The notes below the pieces were generated by a model. The model ran no database searches and was not told where the DNA came from. It worked only from the letters and a program-made list of their open reading frames with translations. A stretch of 64,000 nucleotides of DNA from the NCBI GenBank assembly GCA_964491265.1, contig CAZBFP010000010.1, positions 2,233-66,232 on the forward strand, in the 5' to 3' direction. Each line of letters starts with the position of its first letter. Positions within the stretch are counted from its first letter, which is position 1. Positions 6,577 to 21,694 of this stretch are shown here, piece after piece. The translations under genes and the position numbers were made by a program. The stretch comes from an uncultured Leptospirales bacterium (GTDB lineage Bacteria > Spirochaetota > UBA4802 > UBA5550).

Positions 6577-8091
6577 ATGAATGAACGAATAGCAAATGCT
6601 CTTGAAGAAGCGAGGAAAGTAAGTGATGAAGGTATTATTCTTTCAGAACGGCTTTCTCCTAAATCAAGGGAAATACTAATAAATGCAGGATTCCTGGAAC
6701 GGATTGTCCGGGGCTGGTATATGCTTGTTTCTCCGGAATCTTCAGGCAGCAGTACTCCCTGGTTCAGTATGTACTGGCAATTCCTGAAACAGTATCTGGT
6801 TCAGCGTTTTGGTCAGTCAGGGTATTGTCTTTCGCCGCAGTCCTCTCTTGATATTTATACAGGGGAAACAACTGTCCCGGAGCAGATAATTATACTTACA
6901 GATAAAAACAGCAATACTACAGTACAGCTCCCCCGGGGGATATCTCTTCTTCTTTATCAGGATAGTAAATCCATACCTGAAAAACCCGGTAGGATTAACG
7001 GATTAAATCTTATGCCTCTCCCGTACGCAATAGCAAAGGCCTCTCCTGCCTATTATCAGAATAAATCAGATAATATTCAAATAGCTTTATCACTTGTTGA
7101 ATCTGTGTCAGATATCACAAGAGTACTTATTGAAACAGGGAGTATTGCAGCTGCTGAAAGGATTGCAGGAGCATATCTTGAAATTGGCAACAGTTCAGCT
7201 TCACAGACTGTTGTTAAGGATATGAAGCTGGCGGGTTATTCTGTTAAACCTGTAAATCCCTTTATATCAATTGTTCCTTTAATTGGTACAGGCAGGTTCC
7301 GTTCACCATATTCCCCGCGAATCATTGCTATGTGGAACAACTTCAGAGGCCCGGTAATTGATATGTTCCCGGAGCCTGTGATAAAAATAGATAACTCTGA
7401 TCCTGATAATGTAATAAAGAGAATCCGGGAGAATATTACTGAAGACGCATATCACTCCCTCTCTATTGAGGGGTACAGGGTTACAGATGATCTTATCAAA
7501 AGGGTCAGATCCGGGGAATGGAATCCTGATAAAGAAATATCAGACAGTAATCTCCGTGATACTCTTGCGGCTAAGGGGTATTCTCTTGCTTATGATGCAG
7601 TTCTTGACAGTGTAACTGAAGCATTAAAGGGGGGTAATCCCGGAAAGATATTTAAAGAGAGTCTGCCGGACTGGTATCGTCAGCTTTTTTACTCCATGGC
7701 CCAGGCAGGTATATTAAGATCAACAGATCTTATCGGATATAGAAGAAATCAGGTTTATATTAAAGATGCTCATCACATCCCGCCCCCTTATGAATCTGTT
7801 ATTGATGCCATGGATACACTCTTTGATCTGCTTCAGAAAGAGGAGAGCGGAGCTGTAAGGGCTTTACTTGGTCATTACTTTTTTGTATATATTCATCCTT
7901 ATATGGATGGTAATGGCAGACTGGCAAGATTTCTTATGAATTTAATGCTCGTTACTGCCGGATACCCCTGGACCATAATCCGGGTAACTGAAAGAGCAGG
8001 TTACATGAAGTCACTTGATCTGGTGGCCAGAGAGAAAGATATAAGGCCATTTACCAGGTTTATTATTCAGGAGATGATGGTAAATCATTGA
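6577..8091 (+). CDS. Fic/Doc-family protein (504 aa) with long N-terminal extension
   Basis: Canonical Fic motif HPYMDGNGRLARF (HPFx[DE]GNGR) near the C-terminus. Confidence 0.85.
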   Translation: MNERIANALEEARKVSDEGIILSERLSPKSREILINAGFLERIVRGWYMLVSPESSGSSTPWFSMYWQFLKQYLVQRFGQSGYCLSPQSSLDIYTGETTVPEQIIILTDKNSNTTVQLPRGISLLLYQDSKSIPEKPGRINGLNLMPLPYAIAKASPAYYQNKSDNIQIALSLVESVSDITRVLIETGSIAAAERIAGAYLEIGNSSASQTVVKDMKLAGYSVKPVNPFISIVPLIGTGRFRSPYSPRIIAMWNNFRGPVIDMFPEPVIKIDNSDPDNVIKRIRENITEDAYHSLSIEGYRVTDDLIKRVRSGEWNPDKEISDSNLRDTLAAKGYSLAYDAVLDSVTEALKGGNPGKIFKESLPDWYRQLFYSMAQAGILRSTDLIGYRRNQVYIKDAHHIPPPYESVIDAMDTLFDLLQKEESGAVRALLGHYFFVYIHPYMDGNGRLARFLMNLMLVTAGYPWTIIRVTERAGYMKSLDLVAREKDIRPFTRFIIQEMMVNH

Positions 8092-9235: not shown

Positions 9236-9958
9236 ATGGTAAAAAAAGATAAGCCGGTCATCACCATACGCAGTTTTGCTGCCGAATATCTGACCTATGT
9301 TGCCTCTGCTGGTGACAGTGAAAATAGTTTTGAAGTCCGCTATGAAGATGAAAATATATGGTTAACTCAAAAAATGCTGGCAACACTTTGTGATGTTTCT
9401 GTTCCGGCAATTAATCAGCACATCAAAAATATTTATGATGACCATGAATTGGATGCAGAGGCAACTATTAAGAAATACTTAACAGTTCAAAATGAGGGCA
9501 ACAGGAGTGTGAGCAGAGAGGTGGCTCATTATAACCTGCAGATGATTATAGCCGTAGGATTTAAAGTGAACTCGGAACGGGCTGTTCAATTCCGGAAATG
9601 GGTTAACCAGATTGCAAAAGATTACACCATTAAGGGCTGGGTTATGGATGATGAGCGTCTTAAAAAAGGAACTTATCTGACTGACAAATATTATGAGGAA
9701 CAGCTTGAACGTATAAGAGAAATCCGTTCAAGTAAGAGAAAATTCTATCAAAAGATTACTGACCTTTATGCAACAGCTTTTGATTATGACAAAACAGCAA
9801 AATCAACATATCGTTTTTATGCCACCGTTCAAAATAAAATGCATTTCGCGGTACATGGGCATACAGCTGCTGAATTGATTACAGAACGTGCGAATAGTGA
9901 AAAGAAATATATGGGGCTTACAACATGGCAGGATGCACCGGAATACGCAATTAAATAG
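9236..9958 (+). CDS. RhuM-family virulence protein (Virulence_RhuM), apparently C-terminally truncated or frameshifted at 240 aa
   Basis: INQHIKNIY and HYNLQMIIAVGFKVNSERAVQFRKWVNQIAKDYTIKGWVMDDERLKKG match the RhuM core (YNLDAIIAVGYRVNS..QFRQWAT). Homologs as recalled are about 330 aa. An out-of-frame ORF (9888-10190) continues after the stop. Confidence 0.65.
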   Translation: MVKKDKPVITIRSFAAEYLTYVASAGDSENSFEVRYEDENIWLTQKMLATLCDVSVPAINQHIKNIYDDHELDAEATIKKYLTVQNEGNRSVSREVAHYNLQMIIAVGFKVNSERAVQFRKWVNQIAKDYTIKGWVMDDERLKKGTYLTDKYYEEQLERIREIRSSKRKFYQKITDLYATAFDYDKTAKSTYRFYATVQNKMHFAVHGHTAAELITERANSEKKYMGLTTWQDAPEYAIK

Positions 9959-10217: not shown

Positions 10218-10667
10218 TTGATAATGAATGAACCGATAAAAAAGCATGGCGGGTATCTAATAGCTGCAGGTGAGCAGTTTGATATAATCGCAGCTATTAA
10301 TGGTAATGGGAAATCTCCGTTTTGGGAGTATTTTGCTACTTTGAATGAAGAGGTTATAAAAAGACTTCAGAAAGGTTCTAAAAGTAATAAAGATGTAAAA
10401 GATTATAAGACTCTTCAGTTTTATTTTGATAAATTTAGTAATAAAGGAAGGTGGAATAATAAGACTCAGCTGAATTCTCTTGATGATGGATTCTGGGAAT
10501 TCAAGAATGTTGATACAGGATTACGAGTCCCTTTTTATTATGATGAACAGAATAGAAAGGTTATAGTATTAACTCATTATTTTGAGAAGAAGTCTCAGAA
10601 AACTCCGGCTAAAGAAATAGAAAGAATGAAACAGATCAAAAAGGAGTTTGAGAATTACAGGGGGTAG
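10218..10667 (+). CDS. higB: HigB-type / Gp49-like (RelE-ParE superfamily) toxin
   Basis: GNGKSPFWEYF...DGFWEFKNVDTGLRVPFYYDEQNRKVIVLTHYFEKKSQKTPAKEIERMKQIKKEF follows the Gp49/DUF891 HigB pattern (GKSP..EF....G.WELR...RIFY.....IVLLHGF.KKTQKTP..EIE.AK). Confidence 0.8.
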   Translation: MIMNEPIKKHGGYLIAAGEQFDIIAAINGNGKSPFWEYFATLNEEVIKRLQKGSKSNKDVKDYKTLQFYFDKFSNKGRWNNKTQLNSLDDGFWEFKNVDTGLRVPFYYDEQNRKVIVLTHYFEKKSQKTPAKEIERMKQIKKEFENYRG

Positions 10668-10671
10668 TAAC

Positions 10672-10962
10672 ATGAGTGGATACAATATTTTTAACGATTC
10701 AATACCGGTAGAATTAAAAGATTTATATAACGAAGAATATGCACAAACCGAAGCACTCCTGAATGCAGCGAATCTTATCAGTGAAGCTATGGAGGAAAGT
10801 AGAATTAATCAGACTGAACTTGCGGAGCTTCTCGGAGTAAGCAGAGGCTATGTTTCAAGGTTACTCTCCGGGAATGAGAATATGTCAATAAAGAATGTTT
10901 CAAGAGTACTTCATGTTCTTGGTAAAAAATATATACAGACAACCGGGGATATACCTCGATAA
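10672..10962 (+). CDS. higA: XRE-family HTH antitoxin (HigA-like), 96 aa
   Basis: HTH INQTELAELLGVSRGYVSRLLSG. ATG at 10672 lies 8 nt after an AGGGGG RBS and 4 nt after the toxin stop. Order toxin then antitoxin is the HigBA arrangement. Confidence 0.75.
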   Translation: MSGYNIFNDSIPVELKDLYNEEYAQTEALLNAANLISEAMEESRINQTELAELLGVSRGYVSRLLSGNENMSIKNVSRVLHVLGKKYIQTTGDIPR

Positions 10963-11082
10963 AATAGTGGTAAAGTCGTATATTTTAAAGATTATTCGAA
11001 TGTCAATGTTGACAATGAAGATATTAAATGTGTTATACGAACAAATGAAACAGAGTCCAGATGGCTGGGAGCAGTTTAAAAG

Positions 11083-11487
11083 ATGGATATAGCTAAACAG
11101 CCCGGAATAATATGCAATTCAGTAATTCTTGTAGAATCAATCTTTAAGAGAGAACCTGAAATACCTCAGCATGTTAATATGGAAATGCAAATTGAAATAA
11201 ATAATTCAATCGCCCATGATTCATCGGCGTTGTCTTCAGAGGTTATACTTACGGTTAATAAGCCTGAATCCTCTGTATATGCCAAGGTCACTTATGTTGG
11301 TATTTTTACTGTTAATGATTCTCCAAATCTTGATCTTAATGAATTTGCGGACTGTAATGCACCGGCAATTATATTCCCATATATTAGGGAGGAGATCCAT
11401 AACAGAATGATGAAAGCCGGTATTCCCCTTATGATTTTACCTCCAATAAATATTAAAGCACTTGTCGATGCTTCTAAATGTAAATAG
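11083..11487 (+). CDS. SecB-like chaperone (candidate TAC-system chaperone)
   Basis: NAPAIIFPYIREEIHNRMMKAGIPLMILPPINIKALV aligns with the SecB C-terminal block [36 protein letters not shown]. Upstream region is beta-rich and SecB-like. Confidence 0.6.
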   Translation: MDIAKQPGIICNSVILVESIFKREPEIPQHVNMEMQIEINNSIAHDSSALSSEVILTVNKPESSVYAKVTYVGIFTVNDSPNLDLNEFADCNAPAIIFPYIREEIHNRMMKAGIPLMILPPINIKALVDASKCK

Positions 11488-11573
11488 CATTCTGTGTGTT
11501 GTTTATTATTTATGAATAATTGAACTTTCCGGATAATCCCTCTCTTTTCCATAATACTCAGGAGTTCCCGGTA

Positions 11574-12083
11574 TTGTTAACTAAACTCTTCATTAAGCTA
11601 CAGAAACTTGACCGGAATAAATACAGGAAGAGAGCATTGATTTCCGGCATTATACTCTTTATAATATTGGCACTTGACCTTCACAGGTTCGGGGCCTGGT
11701 ACATGGAATCGCGGACTTATGTGAAACCGTACTGGATTCCGGGGATACTTATAGTCAGTTATCCCATGTTTAAATATTCAATCTCGGGCCTGATTCAATA
11801 CCTGTCAGCAAAAGAGATGTTTAAAACTCTACACTTTGCTATGTTCTATATTTCATCTGCTCCCTTTACCTTTCCGGTTGCAGTAGTATATTTACACAGC
11901 TTCTTATTTAAAGATGTATTGCCTTGGTATGAAAAAGATATATTTAATCCCGGGCCTGAATTTTATCTTGCAGTTTTACTGGTGATTCTTTCCCCTCAGC
12001 CTTATATAGCTCTTGCATTATTTGCAGAATTTCACGCAACTTATATATGGCCCTGGCTGGAGAAGAAGATTAGCGGGGATTGA
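11574..12083 (+). CDS. Small polytopic membrane protein, copy A of a paralogous pair flanking the giant helicase gene
   Basis: TTG start 9 nt after an AGGAG RBS (11560-11564). DNA and protein homology with 16992-17507 begins exactly here. About 4 predicted TM segments. Ends ...IWPWLEKKISGD. Confidence 0.6.
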   Translation: MLTKLFIKLQKLDRNKYRKRALISGIILFIILALDLHRFGAWYMESRTYVKPYWIPGILIVSYPMFKYSISGLIQYLSAKEMFKTLHFAMFYISSAPFTFPVAVVYLHSFLFKDVLPWYEKDIFNPGPEFYLAVLLVILSPQPYIALALFAEFHATYIWPWLEKKISGD

Positions 12084-12233
12084 TATAGACATTTTCTGAC
12101 CGACAGAAAGTGGCTATATAAAATTAGAGCAAAAGCCTAAAAGAGCTTGAAGTTATGTTATGATGTGTATCATTGAACTGAGACTTAATATTACGTTATA
12201 TTTAAAATGATTTAATGCGTAAAGAGGAAAGAA

Positions 12234-15200
12234 ATGATTCAAACTACAGTTGCTGAGAAAAACCTTACCGAAGCTCGCCAAAAGCTTCTTGATTTAACAA
12301 TGAGAAATAAATTGTTAAATCATAGAGCATCAAAAAATAAATCTATAAGGGTTGTAGATGAAATTACACGAGAGATATATAACATTCTTGTTATCCAGCA
12401 TAAACAGATGGAGTTCAAATATAATCCTGAAACAGATAAAGTTGATGCATCAGAACTTTTATTTGAAGATGTTTCTCAAAATGAAGTGGACCAGCCCTCT
12501 ATCTGGAGTAATGAATCTAATAATGAAAAAGTTTCATCAAAACATCTTGATAAATATCTGCAAACAAATCTTGGGAATGAGGCATTGCAGAAAACCCTTT
12601 TCTTAATATACAACCAGGCAAAAACAGTAATGGAAGAACAGGGGTATACTGTGCTATTTCTGGCACTTGGATTTTTAGAATGGAAGGAAAGCAGCGATTC
12701 TATAAAACTAAGGCGATCTCCGCTTATATTGATTCCGGTGGAGTTGGAAAGAACTAATGTGCGTTCGGCGTTTAAATTAACTTGGACAGGTGATGAGATA
12801 TATTCTAATATTTCTCTACAGGCAAAACTTTCTGAGCAAAATGTCTCTATACCAAGTTTTGAAATGCCTGATGATAAACAGTATTTAGATCTTTACTTTG
12901 ATGAAATTATAGAAGCTTGTAAAAATCAAAAGGATTGGGGTATCACCCAGGATATTTATCTTGATTTCTTTAGTTTCACTAAATTTGTAATGTATAAAGA
13001 TTTGGACCCGATATCATGGATCGATAATCCTCCGCTTGATAGTCCTTTAATAAAAATGTTATTAGACCCGAACTATGTTCAGGAAGGAGGAGATAACTTT
13101 TTAGAAGAAGAGATTGATATAAAACTCTCTGCAAAGAGCACGTATAATATTATGGATGCAGATCCCTCACAGATTGTCGTTATCGAAAATGTTAAGCAAA
13201 AAATGAATATAGTTGTAGAAGGCCCTCCGGGGACAGGTAAATCTCAAACTATTACAAATTTAATCGCTGATCTTCTGGCAGAGGGAAAAAGTGTTCTTTT
13301 TGTAAGTGAAAAAATGGCGGCATTGGAAGTTGTTAAGAATAGACTTGATCTAGTTGGTTTAGGTGATTTTTGTCTTGAATTACATAGTCGTAAAACAAAT
13401 AAGAAAAATGTATTAGCAGAGTTGGAGCGTACATTCAAAAGACCTGTAGCATCTAAACTTGCCGAAGACACAAAATATCAAGAATTAGATGATATGAAGC
13501 TAAAGCTAAATAATTATGCCAGTGCACTCAAAGCTCAAGTCGGAAAGATAAAATGGACTCCATATAAATTGTTTTCACTGTATGAAGAAGCTGTTTGTTC
13601 TTTTGAAAAAAATGAGAAGGAATTCAAATCTGTGAAGATTGATGAACCTGAAGAAATTACTATAGAGGATTATCAGTCTGCAATTATGGCTTTAAATGAA
13701 TTTATGGATTTATTCGAACTAGTAGCTCCAATAGATTCTAATCCCTGGAAAGCATCTCGTCCCGACATAATATTGCCAGCAGATCAACAAAGAATAAAAG
13801 AAATAATTGATGATATTCAATCAAAGATAAAAGAGTTAAAGAAACAACTTGCGATAGTATCATCTGAATTTGCAATAATTAATCCGCCTAGCTTAAATGA
13901 ATTTGGAAATATTTTAGTACCTATTTTAGATTTATTGTCCAATTTCAAAAAGATTAATATTCAGGTATTGCTAAATAATTATAACGAATATGAGGCTTCA
14001 CAATTAATTCTTAATTTGAGGCAGTATAAAGTTTCTTTAGATAATATTAGAAATAGTTTTAATATAAACAAACTGGATGAAGATATATCAAAAATAGTTG
14101 ATGATTTTAAAACTCTATCAACCAGTTTCACACATCTATTCAAACCTTCCTATTATTGTAAACGAAAAGAATTTATATCATTATTTAGAAATCCTGTTAA
14201 AATTAAAAATGATTTGTTGATTCGAGAATTGGAAGGTGTGGTTTTATTTCAACAAAAGCGTGAAATGATCTACGGATATAAAGGGCTTGGTGATTCTTTG
14301 TTTGGTGAATACTGGAAAGGGATAGACTCTGATATTGATGAATTAGTTAATTTTGTTGCCTGGATTAAAAAATATCAAAATGCTTTAAATAATGGATGGA
14401 TTTTAAAACAAAACGCAGAGATTATGAATAACAATAAGTCAAATATTTCTTTAAATGAAACAGAAATAAATTTAAAAAATATTATCGTTCATATACAATC
14501 ACAATATTCAGAATTATCAGAAATTTTGAAATTGTCTGAATCCACGGAAGATTTTAATTCTATTGAATTTAGTGATCTGGAAAATAAGCTTAGTGATTGG
14601 ACAAGTAATTTGCATAGTTTACAAAAGTGGTCACATTATATAACCAAAAGAAGTGTTGTTTGTTGTAACATAGCGAAAGAATTGGTTCAGGAAATTGAAA
14701 ATGGTAAAATTGAAATTGAAGAAATAATTCCGGCCTTTAAGGGCAGTATTGCCAAAAGCCTGCTAGATTATTCTTTTAACCTTTATCCGGCTTTATCGGG
14801 TTTTCTTGGAGAAATTCATGATAAAAATATCAAACGCTTTTCTGAGTTAGATAATCAAATAATTCGTTTAAATCGACAAAGATTAGTTCATATTTTGTCT
14901 TCAAGAAGACCAACAATTTATAGCGGGAAATCAGATGGATCTGAAATGGGTATTTTGCAAGGGGAGTTTAATCGTAAAAGAGGGCATATGCCTATCCGAA
15001 AACTTCTATCAAATGCTGGTTCAATAATCCGAGGTGCAAAGCCTTGCTTTATGATGAGCCCATTATCTATTGCACAATTTTTATCACCAGCAAGTACACC
15101 TTTTGATGTAATAATTTTTGATGAAGCGAGCCAGGTCAAACCTGAAGATGCGTTAGGTGCTTTGATGCGAGGTCGCCAACTTGTAGTCATGGGAGACACA

Positions 15201-16988
15201 AAACAATTACCGCCTACAAGTTTTTTTGATCATATTGGTGAGGAGCTTGATTTTGATGAAGATGAGATGCTAATAACTGCTACGGAAAGTATACTTCATC
15301 AGTGCAAAAGGTGCTTCCCTGTAAAAATGTTGAAATGGCATTATAGGAGCAAACATGAATCATTAATTGCTGTATCAAATCAAGAATTCTATGAAAATGA
15401 ATTATTGATTTATCCGTCTTCCATAAAAACGGATAAGAATTTAGGCTTGTTTTTTAAATACCTTCCAGATACGATTTACGATCGTGGGAAAAGTTCAATT
15501 AATCGTTTGGAAGCAAGGGCAGTTGCCAAAGCCGCAATAGAGCATTATCAAAATAATCCCGATAAATCACTTGGTATTGGTACATTTAACATGAAACAGC
15601 AACAAGCTGTATTAGAAGAAATAGAACTGCAGCTAAAACATCATCCGGAAATGGAAGATTACTTTAAATCAAATGTCTCTGAGCATTTTTTTGTAAAAAA
15701 CCTAGAAACCATCCAAGGGGATGAACGAGATTTTATCATTATAAGTATCGGATTTGGTTATGATGCTGATAAAAAGTTGTCTGCAAATTTTGGTCCTCTT
15801 AATCACGAAGGCGGTGAAAGACGTTTAAATGTCTTGATAAGTCGTGCGCGGGAATGTTGTATTGTGTATTCAAACTTCAGGGCTGCAGACTTGAGTATAA
15901 GTGCGGAATCGTCAAAAGGTGTTAGATCTTTAAAAGTGTTTATAGATTATGCCGAGTCCCGAAATCTTCGGTCTACTGAACCAGTAAGTGAAGATACTGA
16001 CTCCCCATTTGAGGATTCTGTATATGATTTTCTATCTGATAATGGGCATATTGTTAGGAAACAGGTTGGTTGCGCTGGTTTCAGAATTGATTTAGCCATT
16101 GTTGACGAGAAAAACCCAGGTCGTTATCTACTTGCTATTGAATGTGATGGAGCGAAGTATCATAGCTCTCCTGTTGCAAGAGATCGGGATCGATTAAGAC
16201 AACAGATACTGGAAAAGTTAGGCTGGAATATTTATCGAATCTGGTCAACCGATTGGTATAGAAATAGACATATGGCCAAGCGGGCACTACTTAATTTTAT
16301 AGAGAAAATAAAGGTATCTAATCGATATAATACTTCAATGGATAATCAAACTTTACATGCAAGTGATTGTGAGATTAAATATAATGAACCTTTAATGACA
16401 GAAGATTATATCTCATTGATTGATTCTATACCTGAATATGAAATTTGTAATAGCCTGCTATTAAATACAAGTAGGCAAATACATGAAATAAATAGAACTT
16501 ACTTTTCATCCGCAATTGAAAGTATTGTTAATGTAGAAAGTCCTGTTCATATTGATGAAGTAATTAAAAGAATTCGGACATATTGGGGTTTGCAAAAAAC
16601 AGGGAGTCGTATCCGTGATCATTTGACTTTTGCCATAAAATATGCTACGAGAAATACTTCAATAGAACTTAGAAATAACTTTCTATATCTTAAGGATAAA
16701 CCAGTTATTGTTCGCAAGAGAACAAATGGTGAACCATCGCCGGATATTAACCTGATATGCGATGAAGAGATACAAGAAGCAATTTTACATGTATTAAAGA
16801 ATTTGTTTTCAACAGAGATCGATTCATTAGCTATTCAAGCTTCTCGTCTTTTTGGAATTCAAGCGACAAGAGCTATCACGCATAATCGAATAAAGGAAAA
16901 CATATTTTTACTACAAAAACAACATCGTATAGATATTGATTCAAAAAACACTGTAAGAATAATTTCATTTAGCTCAGGAATGAATTGA
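12234..16988 (+). CDS. 1584-aa multidomain protein: DUF4011-like N-terminus, SF1 Upf1/DNA2-like helicase (AAA_11/AAA_12), PD-(D/E)xK DUF559/Vsr-like nuclease-like domain, DUF3320-like tail; candidate defence helicase-nuclease
   Basis: Strong RBS AGAGGAAAG before the ATG. N-terminus has LLDLTMRNKLLN and FLALGFLEW...SPLILIPVEL (DUF4011 hallmarks as recalled). Walker A VVEGPPGTGKSQTI, Walker B VIIFDEASQ, then HYRS..ESLI..SN, QGDERDFIIIS and ERRLNVLISRARE helicase motifs. C-terminal GFRIDLAIVDE...LAIECDGAKYHSS...WNIYRIWSTDW matches the DUF559 restriction-endonuclease-like fold. Confidence 0.8.
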   Translation: MIQTTVAEKNLTEARQKLLDLTMRNKLLNHRASKNKSIRVVDEITREIYNILVIQHKQMEFKYNPETDKVDASELLFEDVSQNEVDQPSIWSNESNNEKVSSKHLDKYLQTNLGNEALQKTLFLIYNQAKTVMEEQGYTVLFLALGFLEWKESSDSIKLRRSPLILIPVELERTNVRSAFKLTWTGDEIYSNISLQAKLSEQNVSIPSFEMPDDKQYLDLYFDEIIEACKNQKDWGITQDIYLDFFSFTKFVMYKDLDPISWIDNPPLDSPLIKMLLDPNYVQEGGDNFLEEEIDIKLSAKSTYNIMDADPSQIVVIENVKQKMNIVVEGPPGTGKSQTITNLIADLLAEGKSVLFVSEKMAALEVVKNRLDLVGLGDFCLELHSRKTNKKNVLAELERTFKRPVASKLAEDTKYQELDDMKLKLNNYASALKAQVGKIKWTPYKLFSLYEEAVCSFEKNEKEFKSVKIDEPEEITIEDYQSAIMALNEFMDLFELVAPIDSNPWKASRPDIILPADQQRIKEIIDDIQSKIKELKKQLAIVSSEFAIINPPSLNEFGNILVPILDLLSNFKKINIQVLLNNYNEYEASQLILNLRQYKVSLDNIRNSFNINKLDEDISKIVDDFKTLSTSFTHLFKPSYYCKRKEFISLFRNPVKIKNDLLIRELEGVVLFQQKREMIYGYKGLGDSLFGEYWKGIDSDIDELVNFVAWIKKYQNALNNGWILKQNAEIMNNNKSNISLNETEINLKNIIVHIQSQYSELSEILKLSESTEDFNSIEFSDLENKLSDWTSNLHSLQKWSHYITKRSVVCCNIAKELVQEIENGKIEIEEIIPAFKGSIAKSLLDYSFNLYPALSGFLGEIHDKNIKRFSELDNQIIRLNRQRLVHILSSRRPTIYSGKSDGSEMGILQGEFNRKRGHMPIRKLLSNAGSIIRGAKPCFMMSPLSIAQFLSPASTPFDVIIFDEASQVKPEDALGALMRGRQLVVMGDTKQLPPTSFFDHIGEELDFDEDEMLITATESILHQCKRCFPVKMLKWHYRSKHESLIAVSNQEFYENELLIYPSSIKTDKNLGLFFKYLPDTIYDRGKSSINRLEARAVAKAAIEHYQNNPDKSLGIGTFNMKQQQAVLEEIELQLKHHPEMEDYFKSNVSEHFFVKNLETIQGDERDFIIISIGFGYDADKKLSANFGPLNHEGGERRLNVLISRARECCIVYSNFRAADLSISAESSKGVRSLKVFIDYAESRNLRSTEPVSEDTDSPFEDSVYDFLSDNGHIVRKQVGCAGFRIDLAIVDEKNPGRYLLAIECDGAKYHSSPVARDRDRLRQQILEKLGWNIYRIWSTDWYRNRHMAKRALLNFIEKIKVSNRYNTSMDNQTLHASDCEIKYNEPLMTEDYISLIDSIPEYEICNSLLLNTSRQIHEINRTYFSSAIESIVNVESPVHIDEVIKRIRTYWGLQKTGSRIRDHLTFAIKYATRNTSIELRNNFLYLKDKPVIVRKRTNGEPSPDINLICDEEIQEAILHVLKNLFSTEIDSLAIQASRLFGIQATRAITHNRIKENIFLLQKQHRIDIDSKNTVRIISFSSGMN

Positions 16989-16991
16989 TAA

Positions 16992-17507
16992 ATGCTGTTA
17001 ACTAAACTCTTCATTAAACTTCAAAAACTTGACCGGAATAAATACAGAAAACGGGCATTGATTTCTGGTACTATCCTCATTACTATATTGGCACTGGATC
17101 TGCACAGGTTCGGTGCCTGGTACATGGAGTCCCGGACTTATGTGAAACCGTACTGGATTCCGGGGATACTTATAGTCAGTTATCCCATGTTTAAATATTC
17201 CCTGTCCGGTCTTATACAATATCTTGCCTCAAGACAAATGTTTAGAGCTCTTTATTTCCTGATGTTTTTTATAGCTGCATTGCCATTCTCATTCTGTAAT
17301 CCCCAAACCTTGAGAATATTTGCATGGGGAGGGAGACCCTGGTATGAGAAGGATATTTTTAGTTCCGGGGCGGAATTTTATATCGGGCTGGCATGGATTA
17401 TACCTACAGTTTTAATATTTATGGTAATATCTTTAGCGGTAGGATATTATAATGACCATATATGGCCCTGGCTGGAGAAGAAGATCAGCGGGGAGAAAGA
17501 TTCATAA
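16992..17507 (+). CDS. Small polytopic membrane protein, copy B, starting 4 nt after the helicase stop
   Basis: First 65 aa and last 12 aa nearly identical to copy A. Central part about 50% identical. A 66-bp DNA stretch (acttatgtgaaaccgtactgg...gtttaaatattc) is identical between the copies. Confidence 0.65.
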   Translation: MLLTKLFIKLQKLDRNKYRKRALISGTILITILALDLHRFGAWYMESRTYVKPYWIPGILIVSYPMFKYSLSGLIQYLASRQMFRALYFLMFFIAALPFSFCNPQTLRIFAWGGRPWYEKDIFSSGAEFYIGLAWIIPTVLIFMVISLAVGYYNDHIWPWLEKKISGEKDS

Positions 17508-17575: not shown

Positions 17576-17810
17576 TGTTTGTAGTTATAGGTAATTTTAT
17601 CAGGACTGAGAAGTAAGCATTTTAATTGTGGTTCTTCACTCTCTGCCATTTACAACCTCGAATTATTCTCAGAATATCACTCAATTAGTAAGAGTCCATA
17701 GATAGCAAGAAGTATCTTCGGGGATGAAGTTTAAAAAGAAATCTCTCAAGTTCTTCATCTGTCATATATTCATAATCCTGAGATTTCTCCGGGTGCATGT
17801 ATACAGTCAG

Positions 17811-17972
17811 TCTCTGCTCAATATGGGTGTCAGCCTGGAGGATATACAGAGCCTTCTTGGACATCAGGATATTACCACAACGCAGAGAAGATATGCGCAA
17901 CATGCCAGGCCTGATCTGCTGGATAAGGGGAGCAAAATTGATAATGTGATTAAAATTCAGCGGTTCGGCTGA
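17811..17972 (+). pseudogene. C-terminal remnant (about 53 aa) of a tyrosine recombinase / phage-type integrase
   Basis: LLNMGVSLEDIQSLLGHQDITTTQRRYAQHARPDLL matches the integrase C-terminal box (LLGHssi.tTq.Y.H) with the catalytic Tyr. Upstream part of the ORF is not integrase-like. Lies directly beside the tRNA 3' end. Confidence 0.7.
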
Positions 17973-18048: not shown

Positions 18049-18053
18049 TTATG

Positions 18054-18127
<74 letters not shown>

Positions 18128-18190: not shown

Positions 18191-18970
18191 CTATGGATAA
18201 ACCCTTACAAAATTCTTATCAAAGCTGTTGAAATCAGGTTCATGAAAATTAAGGACCCGGTAGTTCCCTTCTGCTAAACGTTTTATAATCGCCATATTGT
18301 TTTTGTGATTATAAAATGCTCCTATACCGATCTGTTCCTCAACATTTTTTGAGTAAATAACTTCATCGCCGGTAAAGCAGAATTCAACATCATTATGCTT
18401 GAGAAAAACAACAGATGAACCTGCAGAATGACCGCCGACTTTCTCTATTGAAATATTGTCATAGAGCTGTGTTGTGTCCTGAAATGTAATAACCCGGTTG
18501 CTCTTTTTTAAAAAATCTTTTATATCAAGTAGTCCTCTCAAGTTAAAGAACTGCCTGAATTCATCCTTCTGGATATAAATGTTTGCCTGCTTGAATTTAT
18601 GCACAGATCCGATATGATCAAAATGAGCATGTGTAATAATTATATCTGTAATCTCATCAGGATCGATACCGTTTTCTTTTAGAATTTCAGCAGGATCTTT
18701 AAAATTCTGAAGATTATAGAGCTTAATCAGGTTGGGGTTATTGAATCCTGTATCAACAAGAATTTTTATACCCTTATAGTTTATATAATAAAATTTCCAT
18801 GCAAAGGGGATTTTATCCTCCCCTTTGTAATTATGGAAAATATATTTTTTTGGATACATGGAATCCGCGTATTTTATTTCATATATCTGAAGTTCATTAT
18901 CACCGCTTTTACTGCAGTAGAGAATTGAAGCGGCAACAATTAAAATAATCGCGAATAACTTTTTAATCAC
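18191..18970 (-). CDS. MBL-fold metallo-hydrolase, probable lipoprotein
   Basis: HxHxDH zinc motif IITHAHFDHIGS. N-terminal signal with a lipobox-like ILYC. Confidence 0.75.
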   Translation of the reverse strand: MIKKLFAIILIVAASILYCSKSGDNELQIYEIKYADSMYPKKYIFHNYKGEDKIPFAWKFYYINYKGIKILVDTGFNNPNLIKLYNLQNFKDPAEILKENGIDPDEITDIIITHAHFDHIGSVHKFKQANIYIQKDEFRQFFNLRGLLDIKDFLKKSNRVITFQDTTQLYDNISIEKVGGHSAGSSVVFLKHNDVEFCFTGDEVIYSKNVEEQIGIGAFYNHKNNMAIIKRLAEGNYRVLNFHEPDFNSFDKNFVRVYP

Positions 18971-18979
18971 AGCATCCCC

Positions 18980-21694
18980 CTATTTTTTTATTACTACAAA
19001 TAATCCAAGAGCAGCTGCATATGTGGCAAACCCTATGGCAAATGATGTGTTGAGGCCGTATGTAACATTAACAAAAACTGTTAAGACAACAGCCACAGTC
19101 ATTAGAGCGCCATTTATGCCGAACATGAGTGTGGCATATTCATCTGATATATCCTTTTTAATCTGGTCAAGAGCATGGGGGAAGGGGAGACCCATGAGAA
19201 ATGCCAGAGGGAAAATCATGGCTGATGATATAAAGAGCTTTGTAGTAAAAGCATATTTTGCCAGCCCATTGAATATGGCATCAGCAAAAAGAGCCTGGAA
19301 AAGAATAAGAAGAGGAATTGCCGCAATACACGCAATAAGTGTTCTCTTCCTGAAATTTCTGCTGAAGTAGCTTCCCAGTCCGCTGAAGAAAAGGAGCCCC
19401 CCGAGTATTACGATTGTAGAATATACTGGTGAGCCGATAAATCTCTGGTACTTCTGCATAAGAACAATTTCAACCATCATAAAACCGAGTCCCAGAAGTG
19501 AAAAGAAAACTGTATGGAGCGGAAGTTTGAATCCCTGCGATCTGTACCTGAATACAGTAAGGAGTATAACAGGAATAAAAAGAATACCCGCAAGTTTTAC
19601 AATCACATCAAGAAGTACGCGAACCTCTTTTTTGTTTTTATAAACATTGAAAGGGAAGGGCTTGTTGTCCCTTGTGGGTGTCAGGTCCACTTCATAGGGG
19701 AAGTCAATCTGATCCAGTATAGAGTGGACCCTTTCTTTATTGGCATCTGTTATCATATTGCGTTTTATGTAATATCTTTTCTGCTGGCTGCTGAATGTAA
19801 ACAGGCTTTTAAAGAATTCAGCATCTTCAGAATTTTTTATTAGCGGAAGCATATCCTCTTCAAATTCAGCCTGTCTGATTCTGTTTGGATATTCGGTCAT
19901 TTCATAAATAGGCTCAGGAGCATTGAATACTCTTTCAAACATATGTCCGGTTTTTATAGCAGGGTGAAGAGTAATTCCGGAACCGTATCTGGGAGCAATT
20001 ACATTATGATATCTGGCAAATGTGGCCAGTTCAGCCTGAGTAAAGGGGGATTTCTTTACAAGAACTGTCTGAAAGTTCTGGTTTGGTCCCCAGAAATCCC
20101 AGGAGTATATAAGAATATGCTGATCGGGGTTTTTTACACCCATCTCTTCAAGTGTGGCCCTGACAGTGTTGAGAAATTTGTAAAAGGCATATCTTGCCCT
20201 TGGAGTCTCAAGAATCTCCTCATAAACCAGCATCCCCTTGTCTGAAAGCTTATTCAGCATAAGTTTTGTGGCTTCCACAGTATGCAGGTATTCAGGCATA
20301 AGTGTGGCCATGGCCGGGTACTCAGGGTGAAGATTCATGAGTGTAATCATGTCATAAATTTCGGTGTTGCTTGTGAGGAAATATCTCCCCTCAGCTTCGT
20401 ATGCCTCAATACCTTTATAGGGGTAATTGGCAAATCTTGAGAAGTAGCCTTTTCCGTCCTCTTCAGTCATCAGGTTCATCAGCACAGGTGAAAATTCAAC
20501 ACCGCTGACCCTTGATCCGGGCTGTCTCTTAGCTGATTTAACCAGTCCGTCATAGGATAGGCCTATAATAAATATATTGGGGCTTTCAATATGCGGAACA
20601 CGAGGATCCCACAATGTACCGTTTGACTGAAGAGCAGTGTCGAGAGGTATACCGTTTGAACAGTAAATTATTGTTCTATCGTTAATATTGAAAAAGTCGA
20701 TTTTACCCATCAGGTCGTCCTGGGAATAGATGAGTTTCCAGTTGTTACCAGGCATATGTGAGTACCAGGTCTTTCTGCTTTCAACCTTGCTCATCTCCAC
20801 TTTATGGTTATAGGTGGTTACTTCAAGGAGTTTACTCAGCCAGGTAGAACCTTCCTTCTCAGCAGGTTTGTATGTCCTGTTTATATTGTAATTTAAATCA
20901 TAGCTTCTCCAGTGTCCAATATCGTGGAGAATATATTTTGCCCTTTGGATTCCATATTTGTCACCGGAATAGACATAGTTTTCACCATCTTTTTTGTAGC
21001 TTTTCTGCATAAACTGTCTGTCAAAGGTGTTTTTTATCTCTGGAATAACCTGCTGCTCATATTCTGTTTTTGTAAGTACTTCCGGAAGTTTAAGGTTATT
21101 CATCAGAATAACAGAAGTTCCATAGATAAGCACTATGGCTATTACTGCAGTGGCAGCTTTGGCAAGTATATGCCTGAATCCGAATGCAAGTACCAGAATA
21201 AATACCGCAGGGAAAAACATGAGCATAATCATTACGTCTCCCGATTTGTAGGGGTTAACCGCAAAAATCGGGAAAATAACACCAAGTGCTGATGCTGTAA
21301 GATTACCAAAATATATCTTGTATGAATTCGCCTTGGAGAAGAGCAATGAAACAATAATCGCTGCAAACATAAAGGGAAGAATCAGCAGATAGGGGTACTG
21401 AAAATATCCTATATTGATGATATTATAGTAGGATAATGGTATGGTTGCTGTGTAGAGCAGTGCAGCAACAAGCATAATTATATAGCTGTTGAATCGTGCA
21501 AGATAAAAGCTTATAAAACTTCCAAAGGCAATACTTATCATTGCTATTGAAATAACGAAGGTAGCTGTTAAATAGTTTGTTATTATAAGGAGCTTGTGAA
21601 CATAAAGGGTTTCAATTGCCATTATTGAAAATGAAAAAACGAACATGGCAAGATTGAAAATAATGCTTTGACTAAGGCTTTTCTTCTCTGTCAT
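18980..21694 (-). CDS. Large polytopic membrane protein (904 aa) with a central spermidine-synthase-like (class I MTase-fold) soluble domain
   Basis: Many TM helices at both ends. Central IFIIGLSYDGLV...VSGVEFSPVL...YDMITLMN resembles the spermidine synthase GGGDG / VEIDP / YDVII blocks. Weak, motif-level only. Confidence 0.4.
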   Translation of the reverse strand: MTEKKSLSQSIIFNLAMFVFSFSIMAIETLYVHKLLIITNYLTATFVISIAMISIAFGSFISFYLARFNSYIIMLVAALLYTATIPLSYYNIINIGYFQYPYLLILPFMFAAIIVSLLFSKANSYKIYFGNLTASALGVIFPIFAVNPYKSGDVMIMLMFFPAVFILVLAFGFRHILAKAATAVIAIVLIYGTSVILMNNLKLPEVLTKTEYEQQVIPEIKNTFDRQFMQKSYKKDGENYVYSGDKYGIQRAKYILHDIGHWRSYDLNYNINRTYKPAEKEGSTWLSKLLEVTTYNHKVEMSKVESRKTWYSHMPGNNWKLIYSQDDLMGKIDFFNINDRTIIYCSNGIPLDTALQSNGTLWDPRVPHIESPNIFIIGLSYDGLVKSAKRQPGSRVSGVEFSPVLMNLMTEEDGKGYFSRFANYPYKGIEAYEAEGRYFLTSNTEIYDMITLMNLHPEYPAMATLMPEYLHTVEATKLMLNKLSDKGMLVYEEILETPRARYAFYKFLNTVRATLEEMGVKNPDQHILIYSWDFWGPNQNFQTVLVKKSPFTQAELATFARYHNVIAPRYGSGITLHPAIKTGHMFERVFNAPEPIYEMTEYPNRIRQAEFEEDMLPLIKNSEDAEFFKSLFTFSSQQKRYYIKRNMITDANKERVHSILDQIDFPYEVDLTPTRDNKPFPFNVYKNKKEVRVLLDVIVKLAGILFIPVILLTVFRYRSQGFKLPLHTVFFSLLGLGFMMVEIVLMQKYQRFIGSPVYSTIVILGGLLFFSGLGSYFSRNFRKRTLIACIAAIPLLILFQALFADAIFNGLAKYAFTTKLFISSAMIFPLAFLMGLPFPHALDQIKKDISDEYATLMFGINGALMTVAVVLTVFVNVTYGLNTSFAIGFATYAAALGLFVVIKK

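Follow-up and report, generated by a model that had tools for sequence, protein, structure and literature searches.

The window analysed here is a stretch of 64,000 nucleotides from an uncultured Leptospirales bacterium (GenBank assembly GCA_964491265.1, contig CAZBFP010000010.1, positions 2,233 to 66,232 of the forward strand). It carries at 12234..16988, on the plus strand, one intact open reading frame (ORF) with an ATG start and a product of 1,584 amino acids (aa), referred to below as the window protein. It is nearly certain that this product belongs to the family of stand-alone proteins that join a DUF4011 domain, an Upf1-like SF1B helicase, a Vsr-type (MTES_1575) nuclease and a DUF3320 tail, and within that family to the subtype PDC-S37. 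The sisters of PDC-S37 are Hhe, an anti-phage protein validated by experiment, and the protein that NCBI calls ProA. We consider it probable that the window protein is an Hhe-type single-protein helicase-nuclease immune enzyme acting by the mechanism proposed below, and most likely its gene came in horizontally as cargo of a defence island, now decayed, that adjoins a tRNA-Arg gene. The family is already catalogued and very common, and the protein adds no new category of system. The present analysis shows which domains the protein has and how they fold, that its catalytic motifs are intact, to which family it belongs and in what kind of island its gene lies.

Family membership of the helicase-nuclease

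The best PADLOC match of the window protein was PDC-S37 (PDLC05009), with 1,679.7 bits and E = 0 over aa 7-1568 against positions 6-1540 of the 1,550-position profile; five homologues scored between 1,789 and 1,899 bits against the same model. The second PADLOC match, to Hhe, was partial (678.5 bits), and those to MkoA and MkoC of Mokosh were also partial and covered the core helicase only. Among the NCBIfam models just two matched strongly, ProA with 1,336.9 bits and Hhe with 983 bits spread over three stretches, and both describe anti-phage proteins. PDC systems are putative defence candidates proposed by guilt-by-embedding, most of them without experimental validation (PMC12988326). The homologous loci agree with the single-gene definition of PDC-S37: six homologue neighbourhoods had no gene in common, and the membrane-protein genes that adjoin the helicase-nuclease gene here were absent from nine other loci. 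Our literature search retrieved no paper in which ProA or the 'PLuB' system is defined.

The idea that a single polypeptide with helicase and nuclease domains would be a defence enzyme, put forward when the DNA was read without database searches, fits both these matches to PDC-S37, Hhe and ProA and the defence-type genes nearby; the novelty that it implied does not hold. Homologues formed at least 7,998 clusters (90% identity) at E <= 1e-10 in bacteria and archaea. Among the best 120 clusters listed, nearly all showed the same Pfam set of DUF4011, helicase, MTES_1575 and DUF3320, and the annotated homologues bear the NCBI name 'DUF3320 domain-containing protein'. A search with the nuclease and winged-helix module alone gave 2,157 representatives (50% identity clusters, E <= 1e-30), and most module-bearing representatives were 1,550-1,620 aa long and had it at about residues 1215-1575, like the window protein. 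Relatives of the helicase-nuclease were carried by 571 plasmid records. A phage origin was rejected, since just 5 of 50,697 phage records matched. On the Ralstonia solanacearum megaplasmid CP059490.1 (1967944-1975299), a homologue is apparently interrupted by a group II intron; its match falls into three pieces, and the annotated feature beneath is an ltrA reverse transcriptase/maturase.

Reading frame and domain anatomy

The ATG of the helicase-nuclease gene is preceded by a Shine-Dalgarno sequence (GAGGA) placed 7 nucleotides (nt) upstream. Fourteen metagenome contigs from JGI and ENA samples encode an identical protein with the same neighbours and a sister strain (L026) carries a copy of 99.7% identity, so the ORF is not an assembly artefact. 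The window and the sister strain differ by 4 synonymous and 9 non-synonymous codons, and the resulting pN/pS of about 0.58 comes from too few changes to be interpreted. Six of the nine amino acid differences fall within the 33 residues 1389-1421 (window 16398-16496), in the linker between the nuclease and the first winged helix. Promoter-like sites around the ORF were not above the shuffled expectation, and the scan found no terminator-like site downstream of it.

The sequence-only reading had placed a protein of 1,584 aa at 12234-16988, which proved correct, and the thirteen motifs that it quoted were all located in the translation at their expected positions. In the N-terminal region these are LLDLTMRNKLLN (aa 18-29), GFLEW (aa 146-150) and SPLILIPVEL (aa 162-171). 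The helicase motifs follow as GPPGTGKSQTI (aa 330-340), FDEASQ (aa 962-967), HYRS (aa 1036-1039), ESLI (aa 1042-1045), QGDERD (aa 1161-1166), RRLNV (aa 1196-1200) and SRAR (aa 1203-1206), and those of the nuclease are IDLAIVDE (aa 1285-1292), ECDGAKYH (aa 1303-1310) and RIWSTDW (aa 1335-1341). Conservation was assessed in an alignment of 42 homologues, 43-49% identical to the helicase-nuclease. The motifs, far beyond chance, are invariant or nearly so across these aligned sequences.

The domain limits were taken from Pfam and from structure prediction, with an AlphaFold model that covers aa 1-1200 (pLDDT, the predicted confidence, of 80.2); all domains are encoded on the plus strand. The N-terminal alpha/beta domain, DUF4011, extends over aa 17-199 (12282..12830) according to Pfam (E 7e-43) and the AlphaFold secondary structure. 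It encloses a disordered acidic loop at aa 63-107 in the model, and a profile search gave no PDB relative of the domain. The helicase begins with the first part of RecA1 (aa 305-390; 13146..13403), which contains the Walker A sequence GPPGTGKS with K336, spanned by Pfam AAA_19/AAA_30/AAA_11 matches (aa 311-372), and motif Ia. After motif Ia, RecA1 is split by an insertion of about 545 aa (aa 391-935; 13404..15038) that is all-helical in the AlphaFold model and matched no Pfam family; the spacing between Walker A and DEASQ is 633 aa. The remainder of RecA1 together with RecA2 (aa 936-1215; 15039..15878) carries motif II, DEASQ, with D963 and E964, followed by HYRS, QGDERD and RRLNV..SRAR, and is covered by a Pfam AAA_11/AAA_12 (SF1 Upf1-like) match at aa 954-1214. 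Walker A, motif II (DExx), motifs III-VI and the two-RecA fold are all present, and the core is of the SF1B Upf1/Dna2-like type. Invariant positions comprise Walker A from G330 to T339, including K336, the five residues D963, E964, A965, S966 and Q967 of motif II, WHYRS (W1035-S1039), QGDERD (Q1161-D1166) and the stretch R1196-L1201.

The nuclease (aa 1259-1356; 16008..16301) is a Vsr-like PD-(D/E)xK domain that matches Pfam MTES_1575 with E 8e-37 and 125.7 bits, well over the 38.2-bit cutoff. It has the Vsr-type fold, its closest relative is the Vsr repair nuclease, and it keeps a conserved acidic and histidine catalytic set made up of D1286, E1303, D1305 and H1310. Residues D1305, G1306 and Y1309 are invariant, and D1286, E1303 and H1310 are kept in at least 90% of the aligned sequences. 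Two winged-helix domains follow: the first, at about aa 1421-1486 (16494..16691), contains the Pfam DUF3320 match (aa 1415-1462, E 3.5e-13), and the second, at about aa 1510-1576 (16761..16961), was recognised by structure prediction. The DUF3320 tail is thus modelled as a pair of winged helices; in an annotation by the Aravind laboratory, a winged helix-turn-helix (wHTH) likewise overlaps DUF3320 (PMC3710099).

Most of the earlier architecture stood up to this closer look. Hidden Markov models recover its order of DUF4011, split SF1B Upf1/Dna2-like helicase, nuclease and DUF3320, the two DUF names that it had given were confirmed by Pfam, and the catalytic residues of the nuclease are intact within a Vsr-type fold. 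Two labels needed correction. The nuclease had been called DUF559/Vsr-like, and Vsr and DUF559 are indeed its neighbourhood, but the family to which it properly belongs is MTES_1575, of which the DUF559 score (18.5 bits against a cutoff of 20.6) is a sub-threshold echo. The insertion, described as a coiled coil of about 500 aa, is indeed helical, but a coiled coil is only plausible.

Island context and the paired membrane-protein genes

The GC content is 0.31-0.33 across the gene (window 12000-16000) against 0.37-0.42 in the flanking core genes, which is consistent with a foreign origin. The nearest non-self relatives of the helicase-nuclease are at most 50% identical and belong to Methanolobus, Thermodesulfobacteriota, Planctomycetota and Poribacteria, whereas the named relatives of the host GatB are metagenome-assembled genomes of Spirochaetes/Spirochaetota with about 70% identity. 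Horizontal acquisition is suggested by this disagreement between distant relatives in unrelated phyla and a GatB that points to Spirochaetota.

The gene occupies the right-hand end of the island block. Beyond it lie an 82-aa ORF (17724..17972, plus strand), which is a C-terminal remnant of a tyrosine integrase matching only positions 134-169 of the 172 of Phage_integrase, and a tRNA-Arg(TCG) gene (18053..18127, minus strand) that forms the right-hand island end. On its left side, all on the plus strand, are a 504-aa SoFic-like Fic protein (6577-8091; PADLOC SoFic, 8.5e-26), a RhuM-family protein (9236-9958; PADLOC PDC-S05, 8e-102) and a Gp49/HigB - HTH/HigA - SecB-like trio (10218-11487). The SecB-like protein of the trio matches PADLOC PD-T4-9_C (1.8e-11), and the three genes resemble a PD-T4-9-type toxin-antitoxin-chaperone (TAC) module. 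Going by these matches, several genes of the island serve defence or are candidates for it. The 3' end of the tRNA did not recur anywhere in the window with three or fewer mismatches, and the left border region shared no exact repeat of 12 nt or longer with the tRNA side. Because no att repeat was found, the left border of the island is undefined and the island looks old and decayed. Just outside it, past the tRNA gene, the stretch 18191-21694 (minus strand) encodes a metallo-beta-lactamase-fold protein with a weak Pfam match to the anti-Pycsar protein Apyc1 and, following it, a 904-aa ORF that had no match in Pfam, NCBIfam or PADLOC.

The probable immune function is argued from the matches to PDC-S37, Hhe and ProA and from these defence-type neighbours. 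Several points weigh against it. Both NCBIfam scores fall below the curated equivalog cutoffs, which are 1,500 bits for ProA and 2,000 bits for Hhe. Upf1-like helicases often act on RNA. Our literature search found no paper naming or testing PDC-S37, and a search of literature and structures retrieved neither a structure nor a biochemical mechanism of Hhe. Four of the six homologue neighbourhoods in other genomes were purely housekeeping or metabolic, the remaining two being one of defence type, with Mrr and HEPN_Apea, and one adjoining a ParE/Phd toxin-antitoxin pair. In Pseudomonas aeruginosa, every isolate has a DUF4011 gene that belongs to the core genome and flanks the defence hotspot cDHS1 (PMC10250203), and this core status is easier to reconcile with a housekeeping than with an accessory role.

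These last observations would suit a genome-maintenance enzyme that processes stalled forks, flaps, R-loops or mismatches in the manner of Dna2, Sen1 or Vsr and whose place in the island is incidental. The same could be said of a helicase core closest to Dna2, Upf1 and SETX, of a nuclease closest to a repair enzyme, and of an extremely widespread distribution over bacteria and archaea. We regard this explanation as unlikely, although it is the strongest of the rivals. It sits poorly with a gene that is AT-rich relative to its flanks, lies in a tRNA/integrase island among SoFic-like, RhuM and toxin-antitoxin-chaperone genes, and lacks close relatives among related taxa, since its best non-self match reaches 50% identity. 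The two nearest characterised families are, moreover, anti-phage proteins, and the plasmid-borne relatives also speak against a maintenance role.

Concerning the immediate flanks, a gene for a small membrane protein lies on each side of the helicase-nuclease gene, and the two are paralogues. The upstream copy lies at 11520..12083 (plus strand; JGI calls a 169-aa product starting at 11574) and the downstream copy, of 171 aa, at 16992..17507 (plus strand). The downstream copy starts 3 nt past the stop codon of the helicase-nuclease, and because of this short gap the two are probably co-transcribed. The paralogues are 65% identical as proteins; at the DNA level the copies are 83% identical over their first 277 nt and 97% over their last 37 nt. 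The product, of about 170 aa, shows four hydrophobic segments by eye. Only 9 clusters of its family turned up in 5.8 billion proteins, which makes it very rare. Homologues were seen next to AbiEi/AbiEii (47-415 of locus L021), next to a large serine recombinase and phage genes (866-1336 of L019) and, on another contig from the sister strain's sample, next to Cas6 and RAMP genes, HicA and HigBA (4825-5334 of L029). These settings suggest that the membrane gene accompanies the defence cargo of mobile elements and is specific to this lineage. The bolder view that it marks a mobile-element cargo slot in which immune genes are swapped, or that it acts with them, seems to us rather doubtful; if it were true, the helicase-nuclease would have been delivered by recombination, with the diverged copies as its arms, or the copies would encode a shared membrane partner. 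The paired membrane gene is the sole mildly unusual feature of the locus.

A multi-gene system, in which the helicase-nuclease would work with the downstream four-segment membrane protein, and possibly with the upstream paralogue, as effector or anchor, could be read from the 3-nt spacing, from the paralogues on both sides and from the association of the same rare family with Abi, Cas6/RAMP and recombinase genes elsewhere. We think it very improbable. The membrane gene was absent within 10 kb from all nine homologue loci examined in other genomes, and it was rejected as a conserved partner for this reason; no conserved partner appeared in any of the six annotated neighbourhoods; the 9 membrane-protein clusters stand against at least 7,998 for the helicase-nuclease; and Hhe itself works as a single gene (bioRxiv 10.1101/2022.06.16.496414; 10.1101/2024.10.10.617714).

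Proposed mode of action and comparison with known systems

The original discovery of Hhe is said to be that of Gao et al. in 2020. Hhe protects against lambda, T3, T7 and PhiV-1, with weak protection against T7 in one study, and its defence is abolished by the nuclease point mutation E1731A (bioRxiv 10.1101/2022.06.16.496414). Bas63 g40 and several class II DNA-metabolism genes of T7 behave as its triggers, g40 being toxic only in the presence of Hhe (bioRxiv 10.1101/2024.10.10.617714). A phage gene that counteracts Hhe has also been reported.

Substrate, polarity, trigger and defence phenotype of the window protein are what we infer from its domains and from the published work on Hhe. In the mechanism that we propose, the SF1B motor would load on single-stranded nucleic acid, probably single-stranded DNA of phage replication or recombination intermediates, a substrate made likely by the trigger data of Hhe. 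It would then translocate with ATP, presumably in the 5'->3' direction. The DUF4011 domain and the large helical insertion may serve as regulatory, sensing or oligomerisation modules, and the two C-terminal winged helices could hold duplex nucleic acid. The Vsr-like nuclease, through D1286, E1303, D1305 and H1310, would nick or cut the target, and phage propagation would stop.

The same domains could be turned on RNA, with the Upf1-like motor running on phage transcripts and the Vsr/RAP-like domain cleaving them. Most of the closest helicases with a solved structure are RNA helicases (Upf1, IGHMBP2, SETX/Sen1, Aquarius, ZNFX1), there are partial PADLOC matches to MkoA and MkoC, RNA-helicase proteins of Mokosh, and a counterpart has been described in the Type III-B CoCoNuT systems, where CnuH, as here, combines an Upf1-clade motor, a helical insertion, which in CnuH is a coiled coil, and a directly fused Vsr-like nuclease (PMC11090510). 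CoCoNuTs are McrBC-type operons with the GTPase partners CnuB and CnuC and a predicted targeting of RNA (PMC11090510). CnuH is, however, described without DUF4011 or DUF3320, a comparison with the window protein that is by description only, and no McrB-like (CnuB) or McrC-like (CnuC) gene was found within 10 kb on either side of the helicase-nuclease. In addition, the nuclease retains the full D...ExDG...H set typical of the DNA-cutting Vsr/DUF559/I-Bth0305I enzymes, and the Hhe triggers map to DNA-metabolism genes of the phage. We accordingly hold RNA targeting to be improbable and favour the Hhe-type enzyme acting on DNA intermediates.

The ORF can confidently be annotated as a helicase-nuclease of the PDC-S37 type, related to Hhe and ProA, from a small defence island of a Spirochaetota-like bacterium. 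PDC-S37 is one among many widespread and purely candidate defence systems, and the value of the protein lies there and in the question of how the Hhe family works. No architecture is commoner in the family than this compact one of 1,584 aa, in which the insertion is short and two winged helices are present, and the protein would therefore be a sensible choice of construct for work on infection sensing by Hhe-like enzymes.

Among known systems, the more distant ones share the helicase core or the general idea. The SF1B helicases Dna2, Upf1, IGHMBP2, SETX/Sen1 and ZNFX1 are 11-20% identical to the window protein, and these eukaryotic and archaeal enzymes carry other accessory domains, without DUF4011, the Vsr-type nuclease or the 545-aa insertion. 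Nhi and Hna had been offered as comparators, a suggestion that did not survive: neither PADLOC model matched at E <= 0.01, membership was rejected on that ground, and the domain families and their order differ. All that they have in common with the window protein is a helicase/ATPase and a nuclease on a single polypeptide. Proteins of the MTES_1575 type come closer, sharing the SF1 helicase, the novel Vsr restriction endonuclease and two wHTH domains that overlap DUF3320 in the HEPN survey of Anantharaman et al. 2013 (PMC3710099); MTES_1575 itself adds transglutaminase and HEPN domains, both of which the window protein lacks according to Pfam.

The nearest comparisons are with PDC-S37, ProA and Hhe. 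The PDC-S37 model, a computational candidate only, has the same length class and domain set, and nothing in the window protein is structurally different from it. ProA (NF058533) is collinear, since a single continuous match joins aa 7-1543 to positions 356-1902 of the 1,903-position profile, from DUF4011 through the DUF3320 tail; the first 355 or so profile positions are absent from the window protein, and none of five relatives reaches the 1,500-bit cutoff. Hhe (NF042953, PDLC02194) shows the same succession of DUF4011, a split Upf1-like helicase with a helical insertion and an MTES_1575 nuclease, so the domain order taken as unusual in the sequence-only reading is in fact that of a validated defence protein. 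A Hhe encoded on a Klebsiella plasmid (1,911 aa, named hhe by PGAP) was 37% identical to the window protein over aa 92-448, from DUF4011 to Walker A, and 42% over aa 796-1344, which take in the C-terminal half of the helicase and the nuclease. The N-terminus of the Klebsiella protein is about 115 aa longer, its Walker A-to-DEASQ gap is 940 aa instead of 633 (about 300 aa longer), and the part that follows its nuclease is shorter by about 100 aa, with no DUF3320 match in Pfam. By this Walker A-DEASQ distance the relatives fall into two length classes, one of 633-640 aa, to which the window protein belongs, and one of 890-942 aa, with Hhe and relatives of about 1,850-1,900 aa. In spite of these differences in length, the motifs IECDGAxYH and RIWSTDW are identical in Hhe and the window protein. 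The glutamate of the first motif, E1303 in the window protein, corresponds to E1727 in the Klebsiella Hhe, and it is probably the same residue that is replaced in the E1731A mutant of the Escherichia coli Hhe.

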